A stretch of DNA of 64,000 nt from Candidatus Uhrbacteria bacterium (GCA_943354605.1 CALRCK010000001.1:148936-212935); one strand, 5' to 3'. Counted from the stretch's first letter, positions 2,995 through 48,865 are shown. Notes: a model not told the origin generated them from the letters alone. Numbers and translations are program-made.

Positions 2995-3147
2995 GATTTG
3001 TTCAGATTCGATGAGACCCCCAGTTATTCTGAGCGAAGCGAAGAATCTCTCGTAGGTTATCAGAGTGATCCCTGCGGAGATGCTTACCCCTCCGGGGCAC
3101 AAGTCGCCCGTGCTCAGCATGACGGAAGTGAAAAGTGCCCAGAATGT

Positions 3148-3705
3148 ATGATCGCATACTTAGACGGAACAATTACGGGATTAGAATCCGACGGCGTCCT
3201 TTTGGAGGTGAGTGGCGTGGGATACCGTGTTTTTGTCGCGCGACAGAAATGTGAAGTTGGCGACAGAACTCGCTTTTGGATCAGCGAGATTATTCGTGAG
3301 GACAAACACGATTTGTATGGATTCTCCGATCGTTCAGATCAGGCGTTGTTTGAGCAATTCATGGGCGTGTCTGGCGTTGGGCCAAAACTTGCGCAGAAAA
3401 TTCTCGCCGCAGGAAGTGCGGAAGACATTATTCGCCACATTCATACGGACGATGTGGCATTCCTTAACGCGATTTCTGGCGTTGGGAAGAAAACCGCGCA
3501 GAAGATCATTCTCGATTTGAAGGGCGTGCTTGTTTTGGAAGATAGGTCGAATGAGACCAATACGACCTATTCGGAGGTCGCCGACGCCCTTGAAAGTCTC
3601 GGCTACTCAAAGGCGGATATTTCCGGAATTGCAAAAGATATTACTGGCGAAACCACAGAATCTCGCGTAAAATCGGCATTAAAGCTTTTGTCTCGCCACG
3701 TATGA
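3148..3705 (+). CDS. ruvA: Holliday junction DNA helicase RuvA
   Basis: 'MIAYLDGTI...GVGYRVFV...LYGF...LFEQFMGVSGVGPKLAQKIL' is a typical RuvA N-terminal/HhH arrangement. I chose the internal ATG at 3148. Confidence 0.85.
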   Translation: MIAYLDGTITGLESDGVLLEVSGVGYRVFVARQKCEVGDRTRFWISEIIREDKHDLYGFSDRSDQALFEQFMGVSGVGPKLAQKILAAGSAEDIIRHIHTDDVAFLNAISGVGKKTAQKIILDLKGVLVLEDRSNETNTTYSEVADALESLGYSKADISGIAKDITGETTESRVKSALKLLSRHV

Positions 3706-11385: not shown

Positions 11386-13290
11386 ATGCTCACCAAACGC
11401 CGCCACACGCATCATGCGGAAGCTCGGAATCCAAAGCATTCCGCAGAGCAAATCGATGCCGATATTGACGCGGGTCTTTCGGCGATTTATGGCGACGATC
11501 GCGACGACTTAAAGATTGTGACGAAGGGTGGATCTCGACTCACGCGATTTTTGATTCGTGCGATCGTGCTCCTCACGGCGGCGTGTGCGCTGACGCTTGG
11601 TGGATATGTGGTGTATTCACGTTACTTCGGCCCAGAACAGCAAGGGAAGCCGCTTGCGATGTCGTTCGTTGCTCCAGACGAACTGCAGAGTGGTGCGAAA
11701 ACAACCATTGAGTTCGATTACGCAAATCAAACGTCGTACCCACTGACGAATGTAGAGATCGATATGAATCTTCCTGCCGGATTCGTGTTGCAGTCGTCGA
11801 CGCCGACCGTGACGAGCGCGGAAGACATGGTGTTCGATTTGGGGACGATCGCGGGAAAGAGCGACGGAAAAATTCTCATTGAGGGCATTTGGAATGCGGA
11901 TGTACCAAGCACCACGGGAATTCAGGCACTTGCGGCCTATCAGCCGGCGAATTTTAACGCACAGTTTCATGACATTGTGACGAAAACGATCGCGACGAAC
12001 ACGAGCACGACCGTGATCATCATCGACGCTCCGGAAACAGCGAATGTTGGAGAAACCGTGACGTACACTGTCCACGTGCAAAACGCGGGATCGGAAACAT
12101 TGGTCGCTCCGCAAGTAAAATTGACGCTGCCGACGGGATTCTTTGTGCAAACCAGTGTGCCACCATTGGCTGCCGGCGGGGCGTCAACCTACACGCTTCC
12201 GGATATTCCACCGTCTACACCAACGACAGATTCGGTGGCGAGCGATCCGACGGCTGTTCCCGCGCCGGCTGCTCTTGGAGAGTCCACAATTGTGGTGGTC
12301 GGTGCGTTTGCGTCTGATGCCTCTGGAACACAAACGCTTACGGCGGTGAGTGGTATTGCTGGGTCTCGGTTTTCTCCACAAACCACAACAACAGCGCTGA
12401 CGGACGTGAAGGGGAGCGCGCTGTCGCTCTTGATGGTTGGGAATGGATCACCGGGTACGGTTGTTGCTGATCCAGGCTCGTTATTCCGGATTGCGCTTCG
12501 TATTGAGAATACGAGTGATGCCGCGATTACCGACGCAACAGCGCTTCTCGATTTTACCGCCGAAGATAATTTACCGATTGATTGGAGTACTGCGGTACTT
12601 GCTGGAGGAAAAATTACTGCGAAAGGTGTTGCTTTTGACGCAAAATCTCTTGGGAGTATTGCTGCTGGGGATCATAAAACACTCGATCTTGCGTTTCCGC
12701 TGAAAGTGGATCTTTCTGCGGTAAGCAGTAGTTTTTCTGTTGCGTTTCGTGCAACGCGCGGTGCAATAACCGTCCAGGCGTCGCCGTTAACCGTCCAGTT
12801 GAATTCCGATGCGGCGGTGTTGAGCGCTTTGCGATATTTTGACGATGATGGTGCACCGCTCGGAAGTGGTCCGTTGCCGCCAGTGGTTGGAAGCACAACA
12901 CATTATCGGGCAACGTGGACGATTGCGAGTGGGTTGCATGGATTAGATGATATTACGGTTTCCGCCACACTTCCTGAAGGCGTAGTGTGGGACGATTTCT
13001 CCACGGCAACGAGCGGATCGATGTCGTACGACTCGGGAACCCGAACGGTTCGTTGGACGATGTCGAGTATTCCATCCGGATCTGCGGCAGTGACGGCGCG
13101 ATTCAGTGTATCGATCACCCCAACGGTCGCCGATGTTGGTCTTGCAAAGACGTTGGTTGGAAAGACGGTACTGAACGCAAAAGACGATATAACAGGATCG
13201 GTCCTCGAACGATCCGCTGATGCTGTGACCACCGAATGCGAAGGTGATGTGTTGGCAACGGGGAAGGGAGCAGTAAAGGCGGGGGTGTAA
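11386..13290 (+). CDS. membrane-anchored surface protein with repeated Ig-like/DUF11-like segments
   Basis: Basic N-terminus, one TM helix, then a T/S/V/A-rich repetitive ectodomain. Confidence 0.45.
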   Translation: MLTKRRHTHHAEARNPKHSAEQIDADIDAGLSAIYGDDRDDLKIVTKGGSRLTRFLIRAIVLLTAACALTLGGYVVYSRYFGPEQQGKPLAMSFVAPDELQSGAKTTIEFDYANQTSYPLTNVEIDMNLPAGFVLQSSTPTVTSAEDMVFDLGTIAGKSDGKILIEGIWNADVPSTTGIQALAAYQPANFNAQFHDIVTKTIATNTSTTVIIIDAPETANVGETVTYTVHVQNAGSETLVAPQVKLTLPTGFFVQTSVPPLAAGGASTYTLPDIPPSTPTTDSVASDPTAVPAPAALGESTIVVVGAFASDASGTQTLTAVSGIAGSRFSPQTTTTALTDVKGSALSLLMVGNGSPGTVVADPGSLFRIALRIENTSDAAITDATALLDFTAEDNLPIDWSTAVLAGGKITAKGVAFDAKSLGSIAAGDHKTLDLAFPLKVDLSAVSSSFSVAFRATRGAITVQASPLTVQLNSDAAVLSALRYFDDDGAPLGSGPLPPVVGSTTHYRATWTIASGLHGLDDITVSATLPEGVVWDDFSTATSGSMSYDSGTRTVRWTMSSIPSGSAAVTARFSVSITPTVADVGLAKTLVGKTVLNAKDDITGSVLERSADAVTTECEGDVLATGKGAVKAGV

Positions 13291-13386
13291 CCGAAGTGAT
13301 CTGATCTTGGACAGGTTGTGACAGGGGAGAGCAAAAATGTTGTGGGAAGTGTACGCGTATGGTGTGTGTTTTTTTGGTTCCTGCAA

Positions 13387-13463
13387 GTGTAAAGAGGTCT
13401 TTACATACCCTTCTCCACTTTTATTGGGCTTTTTGATCAGAAAAGTGTAAAGACCTCTTTACA
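13387..13463. repeat. Two copies of an 18-bp palindrome (TGTAAAGAggTCTTTACA / TGTAAAGAccTCTTTACA) in inverted orientation, about 58 bp apart, in a convergent intergenic region
   Basis: Seen directly. Each unit is an 8-bp-arm palindrome, and together they can form a ~20-bp stem. Confidence 0.5.
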
Positions 13464-13539
13464 CTCGCAGATGAGGAATATGAGCACGCCCCGCCGCCGA
13501 TGATTCTGCTTTTTCGTTCCACTCACATTTTTCAAAGGA

Positions 13540-14694
13540 TCAGTGTTTTGTTGCGATCTCTCGCAGCGTTTGGAGGATAATCGATCCGGTCTTTTCCCAG
13601 GAAAACTGTTGTGCGCGTTCCGTGCCTCGAGCCCTGAGGATGCCTTGGAGCTTTGGACCGTGAGGTTCGTCGAGAAGTTGATGGAGCGCTTGGACAATGT
13701 CGGTGATATTGAGGGGATCAACGTAGAGCGCGGCGTTGCCGGCAACATCGGGAAGCGAAGATGTGATGCTCGTCATGACCGGAGTTCCGCATGCCATTGC
13801 CTCAAGAACAGGCAGGCCGAAGCCTTCGTAGAATGAGGGGAAGAGGAGTGTTTTTGCACCCCGGATCAGTGCAGCTTTATGCTTTTCCGGAACGTACGCT
13901 ACTTCGCGAATGTCGTCGCGATATGCTGACGCGGCAAGTGCGGCGTCGATGTGTCGCGTTTTCCATCCTTTTGCGCCGGCAAGCACGAGTGGGATTGCTT
14001 TTCCACCATGGTCGCGGAACATGGTGTATGCCGTAATGACACTGTCGATATTTTTTCGCGGTTCGCGAGTGGCGAGGGCAAGAAGATATGGCTGGTTTAG
14101 ATCGTATGCCGCTCGGTACGATTTATCCGACGGCTGTTCGCGTGGGCCGTACACGCTGTGATCAACACCAAGGTTGGCAACGGTGACTCGATCTGGGAGG
14201 ACGTTATAGTACTCAATAGCGTCGTTTTTACTGTGTTCTGAGACTGCGATGACGCGCTTCGCTTCCCGAAACACGCGGCTTTCATTCGTCACCAGAGCGC
14301 GAAGATGGTCTTTGAGCGTGAAAAAGTTTGGAACCGTGCGCAGTGTCGCGTCGTGGAAGATGACGGCGTACGGAAGTGTTGTTTTCAAAAGATGTGCATT
14401 TGGAAAGAGCCAAACGTCCGGAGTTTGTGGGAGGAACCGTTCCATGGTTGGCCCATGGGGAATCGCCCAAAGCGCGCTGGCGATTTTGTTTGGGATGGTC
14501 ACCGGCGAGAGGACAATATTTGGCTCCCGAAACGCCGGAAGGTTCATGAGTGTTTCTTCTGTTCCGGTCGCAAAAAGCAGAAACGTATCATTTGGGGCTT
14601 GCGCGGCCATGGTTCGCACGAGTGACTCTGTCACAATGCCCACTCCAGTTTTGTGGGGCGCAGTCAGTGATCGAATGTCTATAGCGAACTTCAT
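13540..14694 (-). CDS. glycosyltransferase family 4
   Basis: 'MKFAIDIRSL...' and a C-terminal 'EGFGLPVLEAMACGTPV' motif. Confidence 0.8.
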   Translation of the reverse strand: MKFAIDIRSLTAPHKTGVGIVTESLVRTMAAQAPNDTFLLFATGTEETLMNLPAFREPNIVLSPVTIPNKIASALWAIPHGPTMERFLPQTPDVWLFPNAHLLKTTLPYAVIFHDATLRTVPNFFTLKDHLRALVTNESRVFREAKRVIAVSEHSKNDAIEYYNVLPDRVTVANLGVDHSVYGPREQPSDKSYRAAYDLNQPYLLALATREPRKNIDSVITAYTMFRDHGGKAIPLVLAGAKGWKTRHIDAALAASAYRDDIREVAYVPEKHKAALIRGAKTLLFPSFYEGFGLPVLEAMACGTPVMTSITSSLPDVAGNAALYVDPLNITDIVQALHQLLDEPHGPKLQGILRARGTERAQQFSWEKTGSIILQTLREIATKH

Positions 14695-18535: not shown

Positions 18536-18565
18536 AGTATATGCCACTTTTTTGGCAAACGTCAA
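18536..18565 (-). promoter_or_regulatory. sigma70-like promoter (TTGACG-N18-TATACT) for the 17847..18470 gene
   Basis: Read on the minus strand as 'TTGACGtttgccaaaaaagtggcaTATACT'. Confidence 0.4.
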
Positions 18566-18584
18566 TAAATTTTCCTAAAAGTAG

Positions 18585-18663
18585 TGCGATAAAAATCGAA
18601 TCCCTCCGATCTACGCGTGAGATCGGAGGGTCCGTGGGTGCGGCGGCTGATGAGCCGCCGCAC
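18585..18663 (-). terminator. Two tandem perfect hairpins (18602-18630 and 18638-18663) followed by a U-run on the minus strand, forming a terminator for the 18706..19122 gene
   Basis: ccctccgatc-N9-gatcggaggg and gtgcggcggc-tgatga-gccgccgcac, followed on the minus strand by 'AUUCGAUUUUUAUC'. Confidence 0.5.
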
Positions 18664-18705
18664 CGGGTTGTGGAGCCGAACGGCGAGCGAAGCTCGGTCG
18701 CCTGG

Positions 18706-19122
18706 TTAGTTCGTGTCCTCGTCGTCTTCCGGCGGCCGAGGTTGGTTCTTCAGGCGGACCGGTTTCTCCTCGGCAGGACGCTTCTTGCGGATCTCACGAG
18801 CCTTGAGCTTCGGCGCCACGGCGTAGATGCTCCGCGCCTCGGCCATGACTTCGTCGATGATCTGGTGCGTGCCGTTGGGCAGCGCCTCCGGGCACTGCCC
18901 GATCGTGAGGATCACTTCCACGAGGCGACGGCGCGCGGCTTCGAGGGCCTTGCGCTGTTCACCGGGTTGCGTCCGCTGCTTCATGCTGCGGATGCGCTGA
19001 TGATGCGCGGTGGCACGACGCTCCAGCCGGGAGATGGGATCTGCCTTGGAGCTGTTCCCGCGCGGGATGCGGCGGACGTGGTGCTGCGGGTTGTGGCGAG
19101 GGGTGATGTTGACGAGGTTCAA
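18706..19122 (-). CDS. hypothetical basic protein (inside a GC-rich island)
   Basis: 138-aa ORF, Arg/Lys-rich, no family recognised. Confidence 0.35.
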   Translation of the reverse strand: MNLVNITPRHNPQHHVRRIPRGNSSKADPISRLERRATAHHQRIRSMKQRTQPGEQRKALEAARRRLVEVILTIGQCPEALPNGTHQIIDEVMAEARSIYAVAPKLKAREIRKKRPAEEKPVRLKNQPRPPEDDEDTN

Positions 19123-19223
19123 GAGCGTGCTCCTGGTTCGGTTTGCCTAACGCCGCCCCGGGATGGGAACGGTCGCGAAAGAGTGTCATACTTTTGAGGT
19201 TTCGTCAACGACAAAAACGTGTA

Positions 19224-19342
19224 GGGGTTTCTCATTTGTGACAATTTTCGGTGCGTATCAAGCAAATCTCGCGAGGCGTACTTTATGTGTACGTTGAGCG
19301 AGTTTGCGATGATGCAAGCCGAAAATTGGCCAAATGAGGAAG
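19224..19342 (-). mobile_element. ~120-bp MITE-like element with terminal inverted repeats (copy A, reverse orientation)
   Basis: Aligns end to end with the copies at 30424-30544 and 41096-41215. Its TIRs are 'cttcctcatttggccaattttcg' and 'cgaaaattgtcacaaatgagaaaccc'. Confidence 0.7.
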
Positions 19343-19447
19343 ACCGAACGAAAACCCCCAGGATCATCGATTTTCGATAACCCTGGGGGTCGGTCGAGGC
19401 GTTTCGTCGCCTCGACCCGTTGCGAGCCGCACTGGAACGTACCGAAC

Positions 19448-23049: not shown

Positions 23050-23136
23050 GCGGATGTGGCGGAATTGGTATACGCGTAGGTCTCAGAAGCCTATGCCCTT
23101 ACAGGCTTGAGGGTTCGAGTCCCTCCATCCGCACCA
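23050..23136 (+). tRNA. tRNA-Leu (anticodon CAG), type II with long variable arm, CCA encoded
   Basis: Manual fold: acceptor gcggatg/catccgc, anticodon stem taggt/gccta, loop cuCAGaa, T-arm gaggg-ttcgagt-ccctc, 3' ACCA. Confidence 0.8.
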
Positions 23137-23266
23137 CAAAAACATCGTAATTTCCCCCAAGACGTTGTCACAAAGTTCCGCATCGCCTCACCGTACCGCG
23201 AAGTACGCCTCGGCGATTGCTCGCTTTGTTCCTAGTCTTGAGAAAAATTACGGTGTTTTTGTCTTT

Positions 23267-25021
23267 TTAAAAGCTCACTTTTGTTTTGCGGTACCAACCT
23301 TCCACGTTGGCGAAGCGGTCGGATGGAGTGGTGACGTTGGCGACCGTTGTTCCGTAAAGCTTTGGACTGAGCGCGTATAAGTACTGTGGTTGGTACAGCA
23401 TGATGGCTGGCTGTTCTTCGGCAAACGTACTTGCAAGAAGTTGTCCGGCCTCCACGGCTTTTGCAGGGTCGGCACTCGTTCGTGCGGTTTCGATAGCAGT
23501 ATCAACTTTTCGGTTTGCGAATCCGCTGAGGTTCAGGCCCGGGTATGTGCTCTGCGATGAATGCCAGAAGGGGTAAAGGTCTGGGTATGCGCCGTATCGT
23601 TCACCGGCAAGCAGCGCGTCAAAATTGTGATTTTTTACGACTTCGTTTTGGAGTGTGGCTTGGTCGACGACTGCGATACTGACATTTGCGCCAATCGCTG
23701 CCCATTCGCGCTGCAGTTCATTGGCGGCGGCGATAAGATCTGGTGAATCGAGTGTTGTGAGGGTGAATGCAAGCTCGGATCCGGATTTTGTGCGAACCGT
23801 TGCACCGTCTGCCATGCTCCAGCCCTTACTTTCAAGGAGACCCTTCGCGCCTTCAATATCGGCGGTCGGGATTGTGGCGGCGCTATCAAATCCAGGCATA
23901 CCTGGAAGAAGTGGGGAAGCGAGTGGTGTTGCGTACGATCCTGTTGACGCCTGTGCAACGAGTGTACGATCCGTGGCAAGAACAAGGGCTTGGCGAACGT
24001 TGTCGTCGGCAAGCACTGCGGACTGCTTTTGATTAAAGAATGTTGCGGTGAATTGTGAGAGCAACGGTGAGCCGAGCGCGATCACACCGTCGTGAGCAAG
24101 GCTTTGTGCGTCCTGCGCAGCAAGCACTGAAGCGCCCTCCACGTTTTTGTTTCGCACGGCGTCAGTAAGCTCTTGGAACCCGTTGTAGAACTTTAACGTG
24201 ATGTCGTTGAGATACACCGTACCGCGATAAAAGTGGGGATTTCGTTCAACGGTGTAGCTTCGGAGTGCGCCTTTGTTGTCTTTGACGAGTTTAGAAAACA
24301 TGAACGGGCCGCTGCCGACTGGCTTGATATTGAGTTGGGCGAGTGGAGCATTTTGTGGTGCAACTTCTTCCCAAAGATGGGCTGGAAGAATGCCAACGGT
24401 GAGCGCAGCAAGGAACGGAGCAAATGGTTCGTCCAACGTGAACACGACGGTGTGTTCGTCTGGTGCTTCCACGGTAGATCCGCTAAAACTCACGGAAAGC
24501 GGGCTATGGTATTCGGGGTTTTGGATTGCGTCGATAGTAAAGAGAACATCGGCGCTCGTCACAAGTTCGCCGTCGTGCCACAGTGCATTGTTGCGAAGCG
24601 TGAACGTGTACGTTTTTTGGTCGTCGGAAACGGTGTAGTTTTCTGCGAGGTCTGGAACAAGACCATGATCCCCATCAAACCGCATGAGGCCTGAGAACAT
24701 GAGGCGGGTGAGGTCGCTGTCTACGTCGCTTCCAATGGCGTAGAGAGGATTAATGTATTGCGGTGAGCCAAGTGCACCTTCGGTATATGATCCGCCAACT
24801 GCAGGAAGGAGCGTTTCATTGGAAAGCCAAAATCGAACGCCGAGGAGCCCGCCGGAAAGCGCACAGACGATGAGCGCACCAGTAAAGAGCTTCCGTTCTT
24901 TTATGGAAAGAAAACGTGGAAGTTCTTTCCATTGCTTCCATGTAGGAAATCGATTGCCACGAAGACCAACGAGCTGCCGAACGGCGACAGTGTTTGCTGA
25001 CGGGGATTGGCGCATTTGCAC
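23267..25021 (-). CDS. ABC transporter substrate-binding protein, family 5 (oligopeptide/dipeptide-binding)
   Basis: Length, an N-terminal TM/signal segment, and overall SBP_bac_5-like composition with a YxxxxW-rich core. Confidence 0.7.
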   Translation of the reverse strand: MQMRQSPSANTVAVRQLVGLRGNRFPTWKQWKELPRFLSIKERKLFTGALIVCALSGGLLGVRFWLSNETLLPAVGGSYTEGALGSPQYINPLYAIGSDVDSDLTRLMFSGLMRFDGDHGLVPDLAENYTVSDDQKTYTFTLRNNALWHDGELVTSADVLFTIDAIQNPEYHSPLSVSFSGSTVEAPDEHTVVFTLDEPFAPFLAALTVGILPAHLWEEVAPQNAPLAQLNIKPVGSGPFMFSKLVKDNKGALRSYTVERNPHFYRGTVYLNDITLKFYNGFQELTDAVRNKNVEGASVLAAQDAQSLAHDGVIALGSPLLSQFTATFFNQKQSAVLADDNVRQALVLATDRTLVAQASTGSYATPLASPLLPGMPGFDSAATIPTADIEGAKGLLESKGWSMADGATVRTKSGSELAFTLTTLDSPDLIAAANELQREWAAIGANVSIAVVDQATLQNEVVKNHNFDALLAGERYGAYPDLYPFWHSSQSTYPGLNLSGFANRKVDTAIETARTSADPAKAVEAGQLLASTFAEEQPAIMLYQPQYLYALSPKLYGTTVANVTTPSDRFANVEGWYRKTKVSF

Positions 25022-29556: not shown

Positions 29557-29687
29557 GGGCGGAGTATGGCATGGATCAGCCTTTTTTGAAAGCGTTATAC
29601 TTGAGGGAAAGCTCTAGCCGGAGTAGAATTACTGGCATCGAATCGATGAAAAACTATTACGTTTGCCGGATGCTAGGAGCGCCGAGG

Positions 29688-29735
29688 ACCGAAGCGAGGC
29701 GTACTTCATGTGTACGTTGAGCGAGGACCGGAGGC
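29688..29735 (-). repeat. Core-only degenerate copy of the MITE-like element (copy B)
   Basis: 'gcgaggcgtacttcatgtgtacgttgagcgag' matches the palindromic core of copies A/C/D but has no TIRs. Confidence 0.5.
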
Positions 29736-29770
29736 ACGACAACGCAGCCGACAAACTTGGATAGTTTTTC

Positions 29771-29847
29771 TGGGCTCATAGCTCAGTTGGTTAGAGCGCC
29801 GAGCTTATACCTCGGTGGTCCCTGGTTCGAGTCCAGGTGAGCCTACC
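29771..29847 (+). tRNA. tRNA-Ile (anticodon TAT/UAU), CCA encoded
   Basis: Manual fold: gggctca|ta|gctc|agttggtta|gagc|g|ccgag|cuUAUac|ctcgg|tggtc|cctgg-ttcgagt-ccagg|tgagcct|a|cca. Confidence 0.75.
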
Positions 29848-30020
29848 AGAATTCTATGTACTTCATTCCACCTCTTCTTCTTTTTCTCGGCGTGGTGTTT
29901 AGCATCATGGGCCGACAGCACCATAACCACGAATTTGTCGGGTTGGGGTATATTTTCTTTCTTGCAGCATTTGCTGCGGGGACCGTGTTGTTTCTTGCGC
30001 TCTCTGCGCTGTAGTAATTT

Positions 30021-30419
30021 ATGATGACGGCAAATCCTCATACCGCGGTGTTTTTTCTCTCCCTTTCGTGGTTTGTGATCTATTGGATTTTGGGAGGCGT
30101 GGTATTTGCGTTGATTGCGGCAGCAAACGCAATGCACATGCGGAAGGCCCGGTTTAGTTGTTTGTTTACGATCGGCGCCGCGGCCGCGGCACTTGGCGCC
30201 GCGTACACTGGTGTCGTGCTTTCTCGTCCGCAAGGGCTCCGATGTCCAGACGAACTCGTTTCTCGAGGGACGCTCCAGGGCGCGGAACATTTCAATATTC
30301 AATCGATCCTCGTGTGCGATTTCCGTGCCGTCCTCATCGCTGGTAGTTTGTTTTTCGGTCTCCTTCTTGCTGCCGGCATGGTGGCGATGCTTCTTTCCCG
30401 AACCGAAAAGCAGCGATAA
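30021..30419 (+). CDS. small membrane protein, hypothetical
   Basis: 132-aa ORF with three or four hydrophobic helices. Confidence 0.4.
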   Translation: MMTANPHTAVFFLSLSWFVIYWILGGVVFALIAAANAMHMRKARFSCLFTIGAAAAALGAAYTGVVLSRPQGLRCPDELVSRGTLQGAEHFNIQSILVCDFRAVLIAGSLFFGLLLAAGMVAMLLSRTEKQR

Positions 30420-30423
30420 GGAG

Positions 30424-30544
30424 GACTTTCTCATTTGGTCTATTTTCGACTCAGATCATCGGAAACTCGCTCAACGTACAGATGAAGTATGTCTCGCGAG
30501 CTTTCCTCGGTCTTCATCGAAACTAGACCAAATGAGAAAGTCCT
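30424..30544 (+). mobile_element. ~120-bp MITE-like element with ~27-bp terminal inverted repeats (copy C)
   Basis: 'ggactttctcatttggtctattttcga ... tcgaaactagaccaaatgagaaagtcc', with a palindromic core 'aaactcgctcaacgtacagatgaagtatgtctcgcgagcttt'. Starts 4 bp after the stop of the upstream ORF. Confidence 0.75.
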
Positions 30545-30573
30545 CGCATATTCAAGTATCGAGAAAACAAAAC

Positions 30574-30598
30574 ACCGTCCGCGATGGACGGTGTTTTG
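30574..30598 (-). terminator. bidirectional hairpin terminator (caccgtcc-gcgatg-gacggtg flanked by A/T runs) 3' of tRNA-Val(GAC)
   Basis: Seen directly as 'caaaacaccgtccgcgatggacggtgttttgtg'. Confidence 0.55.
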
Positions 30599-30675
30599 TG
30601 GTGCGCGCACGTGGACTCGAACCACGGACCTTCACAATGTCAATGTGACGCTCTAACCAACTGAGCTATGCGCGC
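30599..30675 (-). tRNA. tRNA-Val (anticodon GAC), CCA encoded
   Basis: The minus strand reads gcgcgca|ta|gctc|agttggtta|gagc|g|tcaca|uuGACau|tgtga|aggtc|cgtgg-ttcgagt-ccacg|tgcgcgc|a|cca. Confidence 0.8.
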
Positions 30676-39388: not shown

Positions 39389-41095
39389 ATGACCGCACGA
39401 AGTGTTGCACGGAAAGAGGTGTTTACCGCGCTCAAAAAGGCGTTGGGAAAAACATTCACCCTCACGGCGGACATGATTGTGTCGCCGCCAAAGCCGGGAT
39501 TCGGCGACTTGTGCTTTCCGTGTTTTACGTTGGCAAAGGGTATGAGTCGCAACCCGGCCGAGATCGCCACAGAACTTGCGGCAAAGATTGGGCCGTCGAA
39601 GATGATCAAGAAAATTACGTCCGCTGGGCCGTATGTGAACTTCACGTTTGACGACGAAGCGTTTGGTGCGCACGTGCTTGATGATGTCGCAAAGGCCAAG
39701 AAGCGATACGGTCGAGGCACCACAGGGAAGGGGAAGCGTGTGCTTGTAGAATACGCACAGCCAAATACACACAAAGAATTCCACGTTGGCCATTTGCGCA
39801 ACGCTATCTATGGTCAGTCGATCGTGAACCTTGTTTCGGCGAATGGATACGACACGATTGCTGCGGCGTATATTGGCGACATTGGGGCACACGTCGCAAA
39901 GGCGATTTGGGGATTCAAAAAGTTCTACGGCGAAGAGGCTGTTGCAAAGGAAAATCGCGCAAAGGTTCTTGGCGATGCGTACACGAAGGCGACACAATAT
40001 ATCGACGACCATCCAGACGCGAAGGAGGAGATTTCCGATATTCAACGAAAGCTCGAGGCTGAAGAGCAGCCTTGGCTTGGATTGTGGAAGGAAACGCGGG
40101 AGTGGAGTTTGGACGAGTTCCGAAAGGTGTTCGCCGAGCTCGGCGTGAAGCCGGGCGTATGGTACTTCGAAAGCGAAGTAGAGAAGCCGGGGAAAGAGCT
40201 TGTTCGGAAAATGCTGACCGATGGAATCGCAAAGAAGAGCGAGGGCGCGACGATTGTTGATCTTGCCGACGAAAATCTTGGTGTGTTCCTTGTATTAAAG
40301 ACCGATGGGTCGTCGTTGTACGCAACAAAAGATCTTGCGCTCGCGCTACAGAAAGATCGCGATTACGCCCCGGACCGGCAGATTTTTGTCATCGATGTGC
40401 GACAGTCGCTGTACATGAAGCAGCTGTTCGCAACATTGAAGCGCCTCGATTTCCATAAGGAGCTTGTGCATGTTGGCTACGAAATGGTGACATTGCCCGA
40501 TGGTGCGATGTCGTCGCGAAAGGGGAATATTGTTCGCTACGACGAGCTTCGCGATGCGATGTTCCAGACACTCGTGGATTCCACGAAGCTTCGTCATCCA
40601 GAATGGAAGGAAAAGGCGGTGAACACGAATGCGTTAACTCTTGCACTCGCGGCAATGAAATTCATGATGCTTCGCCAAGACCCGGGGAAAATTTTGGTCT
40701 TCGACATGGAAGAGGCCATGGCGACGGATGGATTCACGGGGCCGTATATTTTGTACACGATCGCTCGCATCAACAGTTTGCACGGAAAGACGAAGGTTTC
40801 CGCATTCCCGTTGGCATCGGCATTAACGGATCCCCAAGAGGTTCAGCTGTTGCGCAAAGTGTCGGAGTATCCCGACATTGTTGCACAGGCCGGAACGGAG
40901 ATGCGTCCATCGTTGGTGTGTTTGTACGCGTTTGAACTTGCGCAGATGTTCTCACGGTACTACGCCGAAGTGCACATGATTGACGAAGATCAACCATCGT
41001 TGACTGCCGCGAGACTCGGATTAGCGGATATTGTGAGCTCGACTTTAACGAACGCGATGGAGCTTCTGAATATTCAGGTTGTGAAGTCGATGTAG
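39389..41095 (+). CDS. argS: arginyl-tRNA synthetase
   Basis: 'EYAQPNTHKEFHVGHLRNAIYGQSI' and a C-terminal DALR-like anticodon-binding domain. Confidence 0.9.
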   Translation: MTARSVARKEVFTALKKALGKTFTLTADMIVSPPKPGFGDLCFPCFTLAKGMSRNPAEIATELAAKIGPSKMIKKITSAGPYVNFTFDDEAFGAHVLDDVAKAKKRYGRGTTGKGKRVLVEYAQPNTHKEFHVGHLRNAIYGQSIVNLVSANGYDTIAAAYIGDIGAHVAKAIWGFKKFYGEEAVAKENRAKVLGDAYTKATQYIDDHPDAKEEISDIQRKLEAEEQPWLGLWKETREWSLDEFRKVFAELGVKPGVWYFESEVEKPGKELVRKMLTDGIAKKSEGATIVDLADENLGVFLVLKTDGSSLYATKDLALALQKDRDYAPDRQIFVIDVRQSLYMKQLFATLKRLDFHKELVHVGYEMVTLPDGAMSSRKGNIVRYDELRDAMFQTLVDSTKLRHPEWKEKAVNTNALTLALAAMKFMMLRQDPGKILVFDMEEAMATDGFTGPYILYTIARINSLHGKTKVSAFPLASALTDPQEVQLLRKVSEYPDIVAQAGTEMRPSLVCLYAFELAQMFSRYYAEVHMIDEDQPSLTAARLGLADIVSSTLTNAMELLNIQVVKSM

Positions 41096-41215
41096 GACTT
41101 CCTCATTTGGTCTATTTTCGATTTGCGCCATCGCAAACTCGCTCAACGTACACATGAAGTACGTCTCGCGAGCTTTGCTCGTCGCGCATCGAAACTAGCC
41201 TCAAATGAGAAACTC
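41096..41215 (+). mobile_element. ~120-bp MITE-like element with TIRs (copy D)
   Basis: Begins at the base after the argS stop with 'ggacttcctcatttggtctattttcga ... tcgaaactagcctcaaatgagaaactcc'. The core is near-identical to copy C. Confidence 0.75.
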
Positions 41216-41256
41216 CTATAATCTAGCCTATAATCAGTTATTATCTTGAAATCTTT

Positions 41257-43823: not shown

Positions 43824-45446
43824 CTATTTGCGCGGATGGTGAAATGGTAGACACGCCAGCTTGAGGGGCTGGTGGCCGCAAGGTCGTGGAGGTTCGAGTC
43901 CTCTTCCGCGCACCAATACAGAACTCAACGGCTTTTTCAAAGCCAGAAGGTGGGACGCGCGAAGCGCGTCCCACTGATTTCCCCCCATTTTTCCAAACGA
44001 ATTTGGAGCACCGCCTTCGGCGGTGCGCACTGTTTTTTCGCCAAGAAGCAGGTTCGAGCCAAAGATTTCTTTGGCAACGACCTTTTTCGCAAAAGGGTTG
44101 CTATCCCGTGCGATTCTACTTAGATTTTGAGCGTCTTTTATCCACTCCTTCATCGGTTCGAGCCAATCATTTTGCTTTTGTAGAAGTGAAGATATTTTCT
44201 CTTCCAGCGACTTCTTTGTAAATAACAACTTTGATTTTTCAGCACGATATATTTCTTGTTCAATAACTTGGTCTAAATAGCCGTCAAGAAGTCGCTGGAG
44301 CTTCGCTTCAATATTTTTGATTTCTTTTTTCACTTCTTCTACAAAAGCAGAATTAGACTGGGCAGATTTTTTGTGGTCTTGCAGAGCAAGACGATTTAGT
44401 TCTTCCGCCCAGTCTGGTGGCAAAGAAACTGATTTGATAAGTGATGATAGCTGTTTGTCTAATTCCTCTTGGCGAATACAAGGTTCGGGACATTTTATAT
44501 TTTTGTTTTTCTTTGAACAATGGTAGTAAGTGTAATTATGCACATTTCCATTTTTCTGTTTCTTAACCTTGTATTCGCCAGTTATCATCATTCCGCATGA
44601 GGCGCAAGAAATTAGTCCACAAAAAGGTTGAGGTTCATTTTTAGATTTTCTGTCAGGTACACCGCGAAGTTTCAAAATTTCTTGCGCCTTATCAAACAGT
44701 TTCTTTGACACAATTGGCTCGTACTTTCCCTCATGGCGTTCACCGCCATATTTGAACAAACCGATGTAAAAAGGATTGGAAAGAATAAAAGACGCTCTAG
44801 TTTTGGAGATTATCTTTCCGCCTCTCGAAACGATTCCATTTTTCGCCAAAAAGTTTGAGATGTCTTCTAATCTACTTTCACCTTTCGCGTATTTCTCAAA
44901 AGCCAAGCGAATGACGCGAGATTTTTTCTTGTCCACTACGACAGATTTTGTGCGAGAGTCGTTGATATACCCCACTGGCGCTTGGCTTGGATAATCGCCA
45001 TTACGAACTTTTTGGCGAAGCCCTCGTTTCGTGTTTTCGGAAAGAGAATCTACATAGTATTTGCTTTGCCCAAAGGCGATGTTGAGCATAAATTTTCCTT
45101 GTGAAGTGTTTTCACACCAAAAAGTTGGAAATTTCAATATCGCCAAATGCCCGCAATCCAAAAGATAAATTATTCGTCCACCGTCCACAGAATTGCGCGC
45201 CAAGCGATCCGGATGCCAAGCAAGGATAGCATTTGCATCGCCGTTTTCAATACGCGAAATCATTTTATTAAACACTGGACGACCAGGAATTTTAGCCGAT
45301 TGTTTTTCAATCAATTCTTCGGCGATATGCAAACCCTCTTGCTTGGCATACGCGCGCAATTCGGTGAGTTGGGCGTCAATAGATAAAACCTGCTTGTCCT
45401 CAACATCGGTGGACTTGCGGGCATACAAAAAGAATTTTTGTTCCAT
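43824..45446 (-). CDS. large serine recombinase (resolvase/invertase N-domain + recombinase domain + zinc ribbon)
   Basis: 'FFLYARKSTDVEDKQVLSIDAQ' catalytic Ser region, 'LAWHPDRLARN', and 'CGLISCASCGMMI...YYHCSKK' Cys cluster. I chose the start at 'MEQKFF' (45446). The frame stays open through IR1-L and antisense across tRNA-Leu, so the natural C-terminus is uncertain. Confidence 0.75.
   Translation of the reverse strand: MEQKFFLYARKSTDVEDKQVLSIDAQLTELRAYAKQEGLHIAEELIEKQSAKIPGRPVFNKMISRIENGDANAILAWHPDRLARNSVDGGRIIYLLDCGHLAILKFPTFWCENTSQGKFMLNIAFGQSKYYVDSLSENTKRGLRQKVRNGDYPSQAPVGYINDSRTKSVVVDKKKSRVIRLAFEKYAKGESRLEDISNFLAKNGIVSRGGKIISKTRASFILSNPFYIGLFKYGGERHEGKYEPIVSKKLFDKAQEILKLRGVPDRKSKNEPQPFCGLISCASCGMMITGEYKVKKQKNGNVHNYTYYHCSKKNKNIKCPEPCIRQEELDKQLSSLIKSVSLPPDWAEELNRLALQDHKKSAQSNSAFVEEVKKEIKNIEAKLQRLLDGYLDQVIEQEIYRAEKSKLLFTKKSLEEKISSLLQKQNDWLEPMKEWIKDAQNLSRIARDSNPFAKKVVAKEIFGSNLLLGEKTVRTAEGGAPNSFGKMGGNQWDALRASHLLALKKPLSSVLVRGRGLEPPRPCGHQPLKLACLPFHHPRK
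43830..43915 (+). tRNA. tRNA-Leu (anticodon GAG), type II, CCA encoded. Its 3' end is the junction of an inserted element.
   Basis: gcgcgga|tg|gtg|aaatggtaga|cac|g|ccagc|uuGAGgg|gctgg|long variable arm|gaggttcgagtcctc|ttccgcgc|a|cca. Confidence 0.8.
43909..44057 (+). repeat. IR1-L: ~150-bp inverted repeat (left copy) containing three GC hairpins, including gcaccgcc-UUCG-ggcggtgc
   Basis: Nearly identical, in reverse complement, to 45514-45661. Confidence 0.8.
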
Positions 45447-45513
45447 AGAGGGATTATAGCAAAAATTCTTTTTGTTGGGCAAATCCTTTTTTGAATTTGT
45501 ATCGCACGGGATT

Positions 45514-45661
45514 TCGAACCTGCTTCTTGGCGAAAAAACAGTGCGCGTCGCCGAAGGCGACGCTCCGAATTCGTTTGGAAAAATGGGGGGAAATCAGTGG
45601 GACGCGCTTCGCGCGTCCCACCTTCTGGCTTTGAAAAAGCCGTTGAGTTCTGTATTGGTGC
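45514..45661 (-). repeat. IR1-R: inverted copy of IR1
   Basis: Reverse complement of 43909-44057, with one point difference plus two compensatory base-pair swaps in the UUCG hairpin. Confidence 0.8.
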
Positions 45662-45970
45662 CTTTACTATACCAAGTTAGAACCTATTTTCAAAATAAAA
45701 TATCATAGTGTTTCCCGCGCGCTAAAGCGCCACCACGCGAAGCGTGGTGCTTCTGCTGAAGCAGAAGTGCGGGAAAACGCTCTGCACTCCGCCACAATGT
45801 TTTGGGGGCAAAGGAGGCGGAGTGCAGAAATGCGGAACGCGAGCGAAATTTTGCGAAATGCTGGGGGTTTGGGGGAAAGTATTTCGCAAAATTCGCTTCG
45901 CGTGCTTCCTGATTTTTTGGCGACAGAATTGCGGGGTAAAATTGTTCAAATTCGGATTTTTTGATATAAT
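45656..45970 (+). repeat. IR2-L: ~313-bp perfect inverted repeat (left copy) ending in an inward-facing promoter
   Basis: Exact reverse-complement match to 48518-48830. Contains hairpins ccacgcg/cgcgtgg, cttctgc/gcagaag and ctgcactccgcc/ggcggagtgcag. Confidence 0.85.
45942..45970 (+). promoter_or_regulatory. sigma70-like promoter TTGTTC-N17-TATAAT driving the HD-hydrolase gene (inside IR2-L)
   Basis: Perfect -10 and a 17-nt spacer, with the ATG 13 nt downstream. Confidence 0.55.
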
Positions 45971-45982
45971 GTTTTTGATATT

Positions 45983-46576
45983 ATGAAGTTTACTATCAAA
46001 GTTATTAATGCGATTAGCCAAGCAGCGATTTGGCATAAAGACCAAGTTCGCAAGGACTTTGAAGAAACGCCTTATATTGCGCATCCATTTTCTGTAATGC
46101 TGACCCTTTTGGAATTTACAAATGATGAAGATGTTTTAATCGCTTCATTATTCCATGATGTTTTAGAAGATGTAAATCTAAAACTTGCTGAAATTATAGA
46201 AAAAGAATATGGCTCCAAGGTTATAAAAATTGTAAAAGCATTGAGCGAAGACAAAGATCCTGAAAAACAAACTGATGCCAAAGCCACATGGCGCTCGAGA
46301 AAATTAGGATATTTAGAACATCTTAAACTTGCTCCGAAGGAGGTCCTTTTGATAAGCTGTGCGGACAAGCTAGACAATTACCATACGCTTGCCAACACCA
46401 TCGAAAATTACGGCTTCAATATAGCATTAAAAAATTTTAATGCTCCGCTCAAAGATCAATTATGGTTTGCTGATGAAATAATAGAAATTTTCAAGAACCG
46501 TCTACATGGTCATCCACTGGTCAATCGTCTTTCGCAAATAATCAATCACATCAAAATCCTATCAAATACTCATTAA
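45983..46576 (+). CDS. small alarmone hydrolase (SpoT/RelA-like HD-domain (p)ppGpp hydrolase, SAH)
   Basis: 'PYIAHPFSV...LFHDVLEDV...VKALSEDKD...RKLGYLEHL...CADKLDNYHTL' parallels the RelA/SpoT HD hydrolase motifs (HPL.V, HDVVED, VTK, RKM, KLADRLHN). AT-rich codon usage. Confidence 0.65.
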   Translation: MKFTIKVINAISQAAIWHKDQVRKDFEETPYIAHPFSVMLTLLEFTNDEDVLIASLFHDVLEDVNLKLAEIIEKEYGSKVIKIVKALSEDKDPEKQTDAKATWRSRKLGYLEHLKLAPKEVLLISCADKLDNYHTLANTIENYGFNIALKNFNAPLKDQLWFADEIIEIFKNRLHGHPLVNRLSQIINHIKILSNTH

Positions 46577-46887
46577 TTAATTTCAGAATCTAATTTTTCT
46601 TTAGCCTTTGCAAAATCCACCATTGTTTTTTCCTCAGGCAAACTGCCATAATATAACCTTGTATATTCATCAATTATTTCTTGGCCTTCGCTTCCGTTTA
46701 GATCTTTCCCTTGTATGTCTTGGCGCCAATAAAGCTCAACAAATTTTTGATAATCAAACGGTTCCTTATTGTAAGGATTTTCATTAATTAACTTATCCAA
46801 GCTCGCTTTTTTTTCTTCTCTAATTTTCTTATAAATCATATTCTGGTCTTCTGGGGATATAAAGTTTGTTTTTTCATTCATAGACAT
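46573..46887 (-). CDS. hypothetical protein (last gene of the zeta-like operon)
   Basis: 104-aa Lys/Glu-rich ORF in AT-rich cargo. Confidence 0.35.
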   Translation of the reverse strand: MSMNEKTNFISPEDQNMIYKKIREEKKASLDKLINENPYNKEPFDYQKFVELYWRQDIQGKDLNGSEGQEIIDEYTRLYYGSLPEEKTMVDFAKAKEKLDSEIN

Positions 46888-46916
46888 AATTAGTATTCTT
46901 AAATTTAATTATAATA

Positions 46917-48332
46917 TTATTGCGCTTTACTATCAAGAGCCACGCCGATAGTTTTACCTAAATATTGTCGTAAAGTTTCTGCTGTTTTTTCTGCAAATTG
47001 TTGTGATTTTTCATCGAAATATGTCGCTGTAAAATTTTGTATGTATTCTTCTGTGATTACAGTATTGTTGATCCTTTCTATCTCTTCTTCCGGTTCTTCA
47101 ATTGATTGGCCGGCTAAATTCTCTCTACCCTCAATAATTCTAACTTTTCCAGCTTCTTCATCCCACACGGCGACTTCAACGGATTGTCTTAATTCCTTGT
47201 CATAAGCCATTAAAACATATCCATTGACTAACTGCGGATTATCATCTAAAGATTTATGTTGGACCTCACGATTTCCTCTAATCCCTCGAAATCCCTGCGC
47301 CACACCATCAAAGGCTATGTTTGGATCGGCGCCTCCCTTTTCACGTTCCAAAACTCTTACAGCGGAAAGCTCGAGCGGAACATCAATATCCATAATTGCA
47401 ATCTTACGGCCAGTTTCCTTAGCACTTTCAATCATTTCTTCTATGTCCGCATGCTCATTCATTAATTTATCGAAAACTACCGATGTATCTGCGCTAGATA
47501 CTTCTTTTTTAACAGCTCTTCCCAACATGGTACTTTCAGCATGAACTTGAGTAGACGATAAATTGCCTTTTTCTTTGAGCGGTCCCTTGAAAACATCTGG
47601 CGCCAATGAGCCGCTTGGTTGTCCTTTTTCATCTAAAATGCCTTTAAACATCTCATGCCCCCTGCGAAGAGCGGTTGTTTTACCTGCCCCGGGAGATCCG
47701 CGTAAAGCAAAAATTGTTGGGGGAGGAATTCTAGGGTTTTCTCTTTCGAGCCTCCTAGATAAATCCAAGGCCTGTTGAGTGTTTTCTCTTTTCAATCGTT
47801 CGTGTAATGACCGTCTACCATCCCAATTTTCAGGATTATCGTAGATTGTGCTTCTTTCTTTCTTAGACAATCCTGTCGTATCAACAAGGCAAAAAACCTT
47901 AGATGTATCTATATTTGGGTCTCTTGATAATAATTCAATGTTTTTATCATAACCTTCTTCACTTCTATGGCCTTCTTGGCTTGATGTAGGTTCTCCCGCG
48001 TCCGTTATTTCTCTAATTTTCCCCACTTCTTCGCCTGCAAGTTGCGTAGCTTCTGTTTGTATTTCATTCAGTTTTCCATCAAGCCCTTGTTCCTGCCGAA
48101 CGGCTGATAACATATCGGGAGATACACTCATGCTTTGAGATGATAACTCAATTCTCTGTTGCGCTTCCGGCAAAACATTGGCTGTTTGTTCAGCAATATT
48201 TTTTTCGGCGGAAACAGCGAATTGTTCTACCTGTTTGTTGCTGACCTCCGCCTCAACGGCTTCTTCCGGTGACCTGATTTCTGTTTCTGCTGTTTCTATT
48301 TTAGCTTGGGGTGAAAAACGTTCTGTTTTCAT
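46917..48332 (-). CDS. zeta-toxin-family P-loop kinase with long acidic N-terminal extension
   Basis: 'PTIFALRGSPGAGKTTAL' Walker A, followed by 'LAPDVFKGPL' (zeta/PezT-like Asp region) and 'IAIMDIDVPLELS'. The N-terminal ~190 aa are acidic and low-complexity. Confidence 0.55.
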   Translation of the reverse strand: MKTERFSPQAKIETAETEIRSPEEAVEAEVSNKQVEQFAVSAEKNIAEQTANVLPEAQQRIELSSQSMSVSPDMLSAVRQEQGLDGKLNEIQTEATQLAGEEVGKIREITDAGEPTSSQEGHRSEEGYDKNIELLSRDPNIDTSKVFCLVDTTGLSKKERSTIYDNPENWDGRRSLHERLKRENTQQALDLSRRLERENPRIPPPTIFALRGSPGAGKTTALRRGHEMFKGILDEKGQPSGSLAPDVFKGPLKEKGNLSSTQVHAESTMLGRAVKKEVSSADTSVVFDKLMNEHADIEEMIESAKETGRKIAIMDIDVPLELSAVRVLEREKGGADPNIAFDGVAQGFRGIRGNREVQHKSLDDNPQLVNGYVLMAYDKELRQSVEVAVWDEEAGKVRIIEGRENLAGQSIEEPEEEIERINNTVITEEYIQNFTATYFDEKSQQFAEKTAETLRQYLGKTIGVALDSKAQ

Positions 48333-48499
48333 AGTTGCTTTAATGATTTTCTAAGCTCGTCCAATTTTTTCTCTTTGAGCGTGTCTAAAAAATCGGCGAC
48401 GATATCATCGCGCTTTTTCTTAAGCACGGAAAATTTGGCTGCAAATTCCGTCACTATTTTCTCAATTTCTTTTTTCTTTTGTAAATTTTTATTGGTCAT
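48329..48499 (-). CDS. 56-aa helical ORF translationally coupled (ATGA overlap) to the zeta-like kinase; candidate epsilon-like antitoxin
   Basis: Not in the supplied ORF track (<60 aa). Translated by hand it reads 'MTNKNLQKKKEIEKIVTEFAAKFSVLKKKRDDIVADFLDTLKEKKLDELRKSLKQL*'. Its stop overlaps the kinase ATG. Confidence 0.35.
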   Translation of the reverse strand: MTNKNLQKKKEIEKIVTEFAAKFSVLKKKRDDIVADFLDTLKEKKLDELRKSLKQL

Positions 48500-48517
48500 A
48501 TTCTATATATTGAGTCT

Positions 48518-48830
48518 ATTATATCAAAAAATCCGAATTTGAACAATTTTACCCCGCAATTCTGTCGCCAAAAAATCAGGAAGCACGCGAAGCGAATTTT
48601 GCGAAATACTTTCCCCCAAACCCCCAGCATTTCGCAAAATTTCGCTCGCGTTCCGCATTTCTGCACTCCGCCTCCTTTGCCCCCAAAACATTGTGGCGGA
48701 GTGCAGAGCGTTTTCCCGCACTTCTGCTTCAGCAGAAGCACCACGCTTCGCGTGGTGGCGCTTTAGCGCGCGGGAAACACTATGATATTTTATTTTGAAA
48801 ATAGGTTCTAACTTGGTATAGTAAAGGCAC
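48518..48830 (-). repeat. IR2-R: inverted copy of IR2 carrying the mirror promoter (ATTATA...GAACAA on the plus strand at 48518-48546) reading leftwards
   Basis: Exact reverse complement of 45656-45970. Confidence 0.85.
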
Positions 48831-48835
48831 CATCG

Positions 48836-48865
48836 AAAACGAAGCCTGACCGGGCTTCGTTTTTG
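48836..48865. terminator. bidirectional hairpin terminator just outside IR2-R
   Basis: 'aaaacgaagcc-tgaccg-ggcttcgtttt' flanked by A-run and T-run. Confidence 0.5.

Follow-up and report, generated by a model that had tools for sequence, protein, structure and literature searches.

What kind of repeat stands directly behind a stop codon at positions 30421..30545 of a 64,000-nt stretch from a Candidatus Uhrbacteria bacterium (GCA_943354605.1, CALRCK010000001.1:148936-212935; the whole analysed stretch is called the window below), and how could it have come to be there? [quoted passage not shown] As an observation, a family of hairpin repeats is confirmed, and five copies were found in the window. 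The MITE interpretation was partly supported: the repeats are mobile, hairpin-forming, non-coding and dispersed, but target-site duplications, conservation centred on the TIRs and a cognate insertion sequence (IS) were not found. The sole part kept in every member was instead a tip of ~25 nt in the middle of the hairpin.

A covariance model was built from 10 type-1 copies and run without filters over the 64-kb window. Each copy is given here with the strand that folds better, referred to as the favoured strand. The three copies named before belong to type 1 and were recovered at their places with ends refined by the model, namely copy A at 19222..19347 (favoured strand +, 129.7 bits), copy C at 30421..30545 (favoured strand -, 128.5 bits) and copy D at 41093..41218 (favoured strand -, 138.5 bits). 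Two full-length diverged members had been absent from the original prediction: copy E at 23137..23261 (favoured strand -, 43.2 bits, E-value 3e-9), which represents a diverged subfamily, and copy B at 29649..29769 (favoured strand +, 39.9 bits), which represents the B-type. The model thus scored A, C and D at 128-138 bits, and the next matches after B and E reached at most 17 bits. Copy B was first seen as a core-only match near 29.7 kb and proved to be the centre of a hairpin of ~121 nt with wholly different arms. Copy E has the same core as the other copies, a UUCGCG loop and arms of its own. The elements were ~118-126 nt long, occasionally up to ~150 nt, and every copy folded as one long hairpin, as had been proposed for the element (-48 to -72 kcal/mol, z -7 to -12). 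The free energies on the two strands were -66.4 vs -48.3 kcal/mol for copy A, -63.5 vs -53.1 kcal/mol for copy E (z -8.6), -71.6 vs -67.6 kcal/mol for copy C and -64.8 vs -51.3 kcal/mol for copy D. In an end-to-end alignment A, C and D were 84-86% identical, and the arm and core sequences quoted earlier were correct. An 18-nt core word was present four times in the window vs 0.07 expected from shuffles, and an arm word four times vs 0.01. The flanks were unrelated and the similarity stopped at the element ends, thus the copies do not reflect a segmental duplication. No conserved open reading frame (ORF) was found in the element, and an ATG in the loop was not conserved among the copies.

On the favoured strand the tip reads helix, GA, GRCGUAC, loop, GUACGUU, GA, helix. 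It thus has an internal loop of tandem G·A, next a stem of 7 bp, in which the two outer pairs are G·U or A-U (R·U), and a loop that varies in sequence and is 5-7 nt long. The tip module of copy C spans 30466..30500 on the minus strand (CUCGC-GA-GACAUAC-UUCAUCU-GUACGUU-GA-GCGAG) and has one A·C mismatch in the stem compared to the 7-bp family consensus. The tip was kept also in members on contigs from outside the Patescibacteria. Within the type-1 subfamily the arms were conserved, even between genera. Between the subfamilies type 1, B-type, E, L007, L011, L013 and L022 there was no arm sequence in common, and what was kept was the complementarity of the arms and a length of ~118-126 nt. The TIRs therefore do not define the family: diverged members share only the tip, on arms that are unrelated yet complementary. 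A conserved centre with free arms is the reverse of the pattern found in a MITE or in a REPIN.

The pairing covaried at both the tip and the arms. Compensatory versions of the tip stem were found as GGCGCAC/GUGCGUU in copy L003b and as GCCGUAC/GUACGGU in copy L019B. In the type-1 alignment 94.5% of the cells were paired, with two-sided changes in 23 of 49 pairs; none of 500 shuffles reached the observed value, and slid controls paired at 29-41%. Among four B-type copies, compensatory changes were present in 18 of 40 pairs. Both arms of the B-type also carry a direct repeat, GAGGACCGRAG, which in copy B lies at 29684-29694 and 29723-29733 and which was also found at 9571 in locus L012. A likeness of this repeat to the sarcin-ricin loop of the 23S rRNA, on the 3' strand (GAGAGGACCG, in the rRNA fragment of L013), was considered and set aside, as only 8-10 nt are shared and the match is probably a coincidence.

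The two strands of the element were not equivalent. In 24 of 24 copies the strand with the tip reading given above was more stable than the other, by 3 to 23 kcal/mol, and these copies held 97 G·U pairs on this favoured strand vs 30 on the other. The polarity goes with the orientation of the tip rather than with the strand of the chromosome. When four copies were folded with DNA parameters the polarity went in the same direction, and the single-stranded form could thus be RNA or DNA. Mutational skew was ruled out as the source of the polarity because GC skew was uniformly ~+0.1 across the window, which indicates one replichore, while the favoured strand alternated (+ for A and B, - for C, D and E). 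A replication-strand bias was not seen among the copies in the window (2 vs 3). Five copies (D, L001a, L001b, L011 and L012t1) are antisense to both neighbouring genes and have nevertheless kept the polarity, so it is unlikely to be maintained by a local transcript. More likely, the polarity is inherited from the step in which copies are made.

The placement of the element was also polar. We refer to the 3' end of the favoured strand as the head and to the 5' end as the tail. The head was nearer to a gene boundary than the tail in all 22 copies for which both neighbours were readable; heads were typically -3 to +5 nt from the boundary, and tails were 5-155 nt away with a median near 30. Heads were located at stop codons (D, C, L001a, L001b, L002c, L003b and L011), at the 3' end of a tRNA (E and L012t1) or at the 5' end of a tRNA (B, L012B, L018, L019a and L026B), and the contacts with a stop codon at a distance of 2 nt or less were at the head in eight of eight cases. 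The proposal that copies start near stop codons was accurate for both copies concerned. Copy D opens on the plus strand with the argS stop codon itself (TAG, 41093-41095) and ends 38 nt before the start of the bactofilin gene, with the favoured strand antisense to both genes. Copy C begins 1 nt past the TAA (30417-30419) of a 132-aa DUF3995-like ORF (30021-30419), and the contact is made by the 3' end of the favoured strand. On its other side, tRNA-Val(gac) (30599..30675, minus strand) is followed by a terminator hairpin at ~30565-30595 and then by copy C, 53 nt past the 3' end of the tRNA. The 3' end of the favoured strand of copy E touches the 3' end of tRNA-Leu(cag) (23050..23136, plus strand) at a distance of 0 nt, and 5 nt separate its 5' end from the SBP_bac_5 stop codon (gene at 23267-25021). 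Copy B is situated in the leader of tRNA-Ile(tat) (29772..29848, plus strand), on the same strand, and ends 2 nt before the tRNA. Copy A lies between convergent genes, 24 nt past the stop codon of ORF 18541-19197 and ~5-10 nt ahead of the terminator hairpin of the convergent gene.

The head rule held for neighbours of either reading direction relative to the element. A cause at the level of DNA, either directional insertion or one-sided loss of adjacent DNA, is therefore favoured over selection on one transcript. The length of the spacer on the tail side was unchanged compared to the empty site (C, D and L026a), which favours directional insertion. No target motif was common to the flanks of 28 copies, and an ATCGAT-like word was found in a few flanks only. 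The idea that the polar spacing is due to a 5' extension, conserved but hidden, was rejected, since no motif was in common.

The window was compared with five syntenic relatives. Four were obtained via an RluD-like protein, which is 90% (L018), 77% (L019), 67% (L024) and 65% (L026) identical to that of the window at the amino acid level; L018 is ~75% identical in nucleotides. The fifth, L004, was obtained via a pattern scan and represents a close relative of the window genome (85-92% amino acid identity). Clean empty sites were found for copies A, B and E in L018 and for copy C in L019. At the site of copy A, L018 reads ...AAAAAGTG^AAACCGAAAACCCCC, compared to ...AAAACGTG, the element and GAACGAAAACCCCC in the window; there is no repeat, and no TA in the empty site. 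Copy E was missing from L018, L019, L024 and L026, and L018 has a 33-nt terminator hairpin in its place. Copy B was missing from L018, with 8 nt instead, and from L024, and a B-type copy was present at the tRNA-Ile(tat) leader in the window, L019 and L026. Copy C had no counterpart at its position in L019, where a type-1 copy stands 4 nt upstream of tRNA-Val(gac) instead. L018 has a differing tRNA-Val(gac) arrangement, and in L018 and L019 the type-1 copy is on the sense strand, upstream of the tRNA by 3-4 nt. In the spacer between the DsbA and SecG genes no copy was present in the window and L024, but L019 and L026 each have one, in opposite orientations and at differing offsets. The SecG promoter-like hexamers are intact next to the L026 insertion, and its flanks (CACAT and AGGGT) are unrelated to each other. 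Copy D is inserted between an ATG and the ancestral TAA, and excision of 41093-41218 gives ATG|TAATC, as in ATGTAATCG of L004. The spacer between argS and the bactofilin gene in L004 has a copy of its own, 25 nt further along and inverted compared to the window copy. In L024 there were no copies in 21 kb of synteny. Two remnants in L019 (1417-1486 and 14869-14929) are type-1 derivatives of 61-70 nt with both arms present and the conserved centre deleted, as expected from a deletion within a palindrome. Target-site duplications, which would be the mark of a MITE, were not visible at the filled and empty pairs for A, B, E, C and the L026 insertion. Together these comparisons show that the family is mobile, or at least turns over rapidly.

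Some tRNA genes at these loci also differed between the relatives. In the window, L018 and L024, tRNA-Leu(cag) and the SBP gene converge, and in L019 and L026 they are co-directional; tRNA-Val(gac) likewise is not on the same strand in all relatives. Single tRNA genes (tRNA-Leu(cag) and tRNA-Val(gac)) have thus been inverted in place between close relatives.

To find the family elsewhere, exact-pattern scans were made over genome, metagenome and viral collections, and the covariance model was then run on the fetched loci. At least 23 further copies were found in fetched loci of related Patescibacteria metagenome-assembled genomes (MAGs) and metagenomes, among them a Hainich groundwater Patescibacteria MAG (L001, L002, L009 and L012) and an Uhrbacteria MAG (L003). 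The model found many extra copies with off-pattern cores: L002 has three within 8 kb, L001 two to three, and L003 has two; the loci were picked for holding a copy, and the copy density is therefore biased upward. An exact match to the ArgS of the window lies on a Logan contig, and the patterns and protein homologues pointed to Patescibacteria and to Candidatus Uhrbacteria MAGs. This Logan contig (ERR5863123, L005), from a short-read assembly, ends at 3776, ~70 nt into copy D; the repeat thus fragments assemblies of this organism. In L012, read along the tRNA strand, tRNA-Leu(caa) comes first, then a type-1 copy, next a B-type copy and last tRNA-Val(cac), and the gaps between tRNAs and copies are 0-1 nt. 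The tip on unrelated arms was also found on a 61%-GC contig, where the hairpin follows a LemA-like gene (L011), on an AT-rich contig, where it follows a ComEA-like gene (L007), and on phage-like contigs (L022 and L023, the latter being MT838758.1). A further member (L013) lies just past the 3' end of a 23S rRNA. The L013 contig, with its features at 202-319, 341-585 and 765-1274, also encodes a LAGLIDADG homing endonuclease, a hint of an rRNA operon with introns such as is common in Patescibacteria. Pattern matches in L006, L008, L015, L017, L020 and L021 had no hairpin and were discarded as chance.

The original prediction did not recognise the sequence as a named repeat family, and our searches gave the same outcome. 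When Rfam 15 was run at the gathering threshold, only tRNAs and one rRNA fragment reached it, and at relaxed thresholds only generic hairpin (miRNA precursor) models appeared, far below their cut-offs. blastn gave no match against 5,426 complete E. coli genomes, with their REPs and ERIC included, nor against plasmids, and in the phage collection only unannotated gut phage scaffolds matched. In the literature we found no described Patescibacteria repeat of this kind, nor the core sequence.

The copies had also been proposed to act as terminators or to stabilise mRNA. The type-1 copies A, C and D have no T-run, and none was flagged as a terminator in the scanned region. Copies B and E do end in T-runs; E has A/T runs at both feet, which gives it the shape of a two-way terminator, and it stands where L018 has a terminator. 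A promoter-like site, TTGAGG-17-TAGAAT at 29601..29629 (plus strand, consensus match only), lies 5' of copy B and tRNA-Ile(tat), and L018, in which copy B is missing, has a matching site, TTGAGA-17-TATGCT, at the same spacing. From its position between this site and the tRNA, copy B should be transcribed on its favoured strand in the leader of the pre-tRNA, where its end is 2 nt short of the RNase P site. In the type-1 arms no promoter-like site was found by inspection or in a scan of 18.5-31 kb, and a promoter consensus match inside copy E is probably due to chance. In co-directional spacers the copies were of mixed orientation, with roughly six sense to five antisense, and the resident copies therefore give no direct support for a role as RNA.

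The reading that we consider probable is a non-autonomous mobile hairpin element that is moved through a single-stranded stage. The element would be copied or moved via a single-stranded intermediate of one polarity, either single-stranded DNA or RNA. The tip may be the recognition site for a mobilising factor, and the paired arms would bring the two ends of the element together. The logic of such a pathway would be nearer to REPIN/RAYT or IS200/IS605-type single-strand transposition than to the DDE cut-and-paste of a MITE. After insertion, the element would be transcribed passively inside 3' untranslated regions (UTRs), intergenic spacers and tRNA leaders; transcribed copies are predicted to form very stable RNA hairpins and may stabilise or process transcripts, and the U-run ends of B and E may also terminate transcription. 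The conserved tip, the free arms, the polarity, the polar placement and the lack of a duplication together point to an insertion mechanism that has not been described for MITEs.

Several observations weigh against this reading. Much of the G·U excess of type 1 comes from the conserved tip and from a small set of positions that the copies share, so that far fewer than 97 events are independent, and the folding comparisons do not separate an RNA from a single-stranded DNA intermediate. At ~75% nucleotide identity the junctions fall short of base resolution, and a duplication of 1-2 nt could hide in the palindromic TA ends of some copies. In three genomes a B-type copy has stayed in the tRNA-Ile leader and has compensatory changes, which fits a locally selected RNA function as well as it fits a selfish element. 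Lastly, the mobilising partner is a conjecture: no transposase, HUH/Y1 enzyme or reverse transcriptase was found among the ~46 window ORFs that were scanned against Pfam, nor was there a cognate IS with matching ends, such as had been expected from the MITE interpretation. The scanned ORFs are mostly housekeeping genes (aminoacyl-tRNA synthetases, glycosyltransferases, NusA, YidC, GroEL and RF-1), and the genes beside copies include those for QueA and a VirD4-like ATPase as well as phage tail and holin genes (L002, L009 and L022).

The only recombinase in the window is a large serine recombinase (43824-45482) on a ~4.9-kb island, and the island was rejected as a cognate IS because its long inverted repeats (43.9-48.8 kb) are unrelated to the hairpins. 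The island (43925-48854) is located beside tRNA-Leu(gag) and has 39.7% GC vs ~52% elsewhere and a reversed GC skew. It also encodes an HD-domain protein (45983-46576) and a zeta-toxin-like kinase (zeta-toxin/AAA-like protein, 46917-48332). Its inverted repeats are a 148-nt pair with 97% identity (43910-44057 and 45514-45661) and a perfect 315-nt pair (45656-45970 and 48518-48832). The island is missing from the close relative L004 and is thus a recently integrated element.

A classical IS-derived MITE would be moved by a DDE transposase encoded elsewhere that binds the ~27-bp TIRs and duplicates a short target, for example TA, during cut-and-paste. The good conservation of the type-1 arms agrees with this, and many copies have the form TAG...CTA, so that a TA target could hide in the palindromic ends. 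The size, copy number, intergenic sites and presence/absence polymorphism also fit the definition in PMC10969869. However, a TA target duplication was rejected on two grounds: the empty site of copy A has no TA and the junctions have no repeat, and a TA-duplication model fails to restore the argS stop codon, which is restored by plain excision of 41093-41218. The unrelated flanks of the L026 insertion add to this. Moreover, the subfamilies are alike in their centre and not in their ends, which is the reverse of type II MITEs (PMC10969869), no IS is present among the window ORFs, and neither strand polarity nor polar placement is predicted by a TIR-based cut-and-paste mechanism. We regard a classical MITE as improbable. 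A site for an attC-like or dif-like recombinase, with the tip (ACGTAC-N7-GTACGT) as the crossover site, is more improbable still. Such sites resemble the element in that attC sites are imperfect palindromes on a scale of 57-141 nt, in that the element often overlaps the stop codon of the preceding ORF with its better-folding strand complementary to that ORF, and in that the inner half-sites of the tip are palindromic and its outer bases have diverged. But there is no RYYYAAC/GTTRRRY at the foot, where the element has TAGGAC...GTCCTA and feet that differ by subfamily, and the conserved part is the tip, which in attC is the foot. The spacer between the half-sites varies over 5-7 nt, which is not tolerable in a crossover site, the neighbours are housekeeping genes (argS, queA) and tRNAs rather than cassette arrays, and no integron integrase was found in the window. 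Chance similarity or segmental duplication has a negligible probability, being refuted by word counts far above the shuffled expectation, by unrelated flanks and by dozens of copies in other genomes.

The element could also be a structured RNA with a cellular function in processing, stability or termination, whose tip is bound by a conserved RNA-binding protein or RNase, which would have been recruited time and again beside genes and tRNAs and whose spread would be secondary. The strong covariation of the pairing in type 1 and the B-type supports a functional RNA fold, as do the G·U / A-U interchange at two tip pairs and the tandem G·A that is constant on one strand only. The B-type copy is on the transcribed strand in the tRNA-Ile(tat) leader in three genomes and upstream of tRNA-Val(cac) in a fourth, the L018 and L019 type-1 copies are on the sense strand just upstream of tRNA-Val(gac), and the tip was kept on contigs of very different composition and context. 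Against such a function stand the near-complete turnover of positions among close relatives, including one syntenic relative with no copy at all, and the finding that, among the informative copies, roughly one in two is antisense to both neighbours with the polarity kept. The polarity is seen with DNA folding parameters as well, there was no match in Rfam 15, and the type-1 arms are without an evident promoter-like site. We therefore consider an RNA element of this kind to be unlikely. Somewhat less doubtful, although still tentative, is the possibility that the family represents a distinct class, in which the tip would be read by a conserved host factor or an undiscovered enzyme and integration would be directional, free of duplication and flush with gene, tRNA and rRNA boundaries, across diverse bacteria and phages; alternatively, it might be a new class of structured RNA that proliferates like a mobile element.

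Other small repeats share some of these features. REPINs are doublets of REP sequences that form hairpins and are mobilised by RAYT Y1 transposases, and they are proposed to move as single-stranded intermediates in an IS200/IS605-like manner (PMC3116915, PMC3337134). The element resembles a REPIN in being non-autonomous, intergenic, ~100 nt in size and of high copy number, and in forming one long hairpin with compensatory changes and a length that is kept. An IS200/IS605-like mechanism leaves no target duplication. In contrast to the element, a REPIN conserves its two terminal REP units and keeps only the pairing in the middle, whereas here the ends vary and the middle is conserved; in addition, there is no GTAG-type REP, no RAYT gene among the ~46 window ORFs and no similarity to E. 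coli REPs. The enterobacterial ERIC/IRU repeats (Hulton et al. 1991, cited in PMC10969869) have reported effects on mRNA stability (PMC10969869). Like the element, ERIC is an imperfect palindrome of ~125 nt whose central inverted repeat is highly conserved; both are found near gene ends in transcribed intergenic DNA, either way round, and vary widely in copy number among relatives. Unlike the element, ERIC is confined to Gammaproteobacteria, and no sequence similarity was found by blastn in the E. coli genomes. ERIC insertions in Yersinia reportedly have a TA duplication, and we know of no description of strand polarity or polar placement for ERIC. The element thus works most like a REPIN and looks most like ERIC.

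Prokaryotic MITEs include Correia (CREE), RUP and QMITEs, of which QMITE2 prefers 3' UTRs; by definition, MITEs share their TIRs with a parent IS and are flanked by direct target repeats, and in type II the conservation is confined to the TIRs (PMC10969869). The element is like them in being small (<500 bp), multi-copy, non-coding, intergenic and able to form a hairpin when transcribed, and in being polymorphic, which in MITEs is seen between strains. It differs in having no direct repeats of the target, no TIR-centred conservation and no parent IS in the window. Lastly, repetitive hairpin-forming and double-hairpin elements have been described in the mitochondrial genomes of sponges and fungi (PMC2800124). 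They too are mobile and enter the short spacers between genes in compact genomes, although in unrelated hosts, and the likeness is one of description. Mitochondrial hairpin repeats are also found next to tRNA genes, and no known transposase is associated with them. The family, for which the literature searches gave no described precedent, is best filed among the small dispersed hairpin repeats.

Two other repeats and one tRNA in the window are of separate interest. At 13372-13470, in the spacer between ORFs 11386-13290 and 13540-14694, two units of 25-34 nt with TGTAAAGAGGTCTTTACA are 58 nt apart; they are direct and inverted repeats at once, 96% complementary, and could be an operator or a terminator pair (the hairpin model scored them weakly, at 17 bits). 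A 38-nt inverted repeat with 79% complementarity (2635-2672 and 3542-3579), built on ATAGGTCGAAT...ATTCGACCTAT, has its halves ~870 nt apart and apparently lies within or at the edges of ORFs 1789-2994 and 2998-3705 (RuvA). The tRNA-Ile at 29772-29848 has the anticodon TAT (UAU), as at the same locus in L018, L019, L024 and L026, and a UAU anticodon is an uncommon bacterial way of reading AUA.

The genomes of Patescibacteria are tiny and tightly packed and are usually regarded as low in repetitive DNA. Here a hairpin repeat fills many of the short spacers, supplies stop codons, sits in tRNA leaders and shifts position between relatives, with consequences for assembly breaks, 3'-end annotation and possibly transcript stability. 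A fixed tip, free arms, strand polarity, no duplication and a strictly polar position are an unusual mix for a small bacterial repeat. Since the tip recurs on phage-like contigs and on others that differ greatly in base composition, the covariance model offers a handle for finding the mobilising enzyme.

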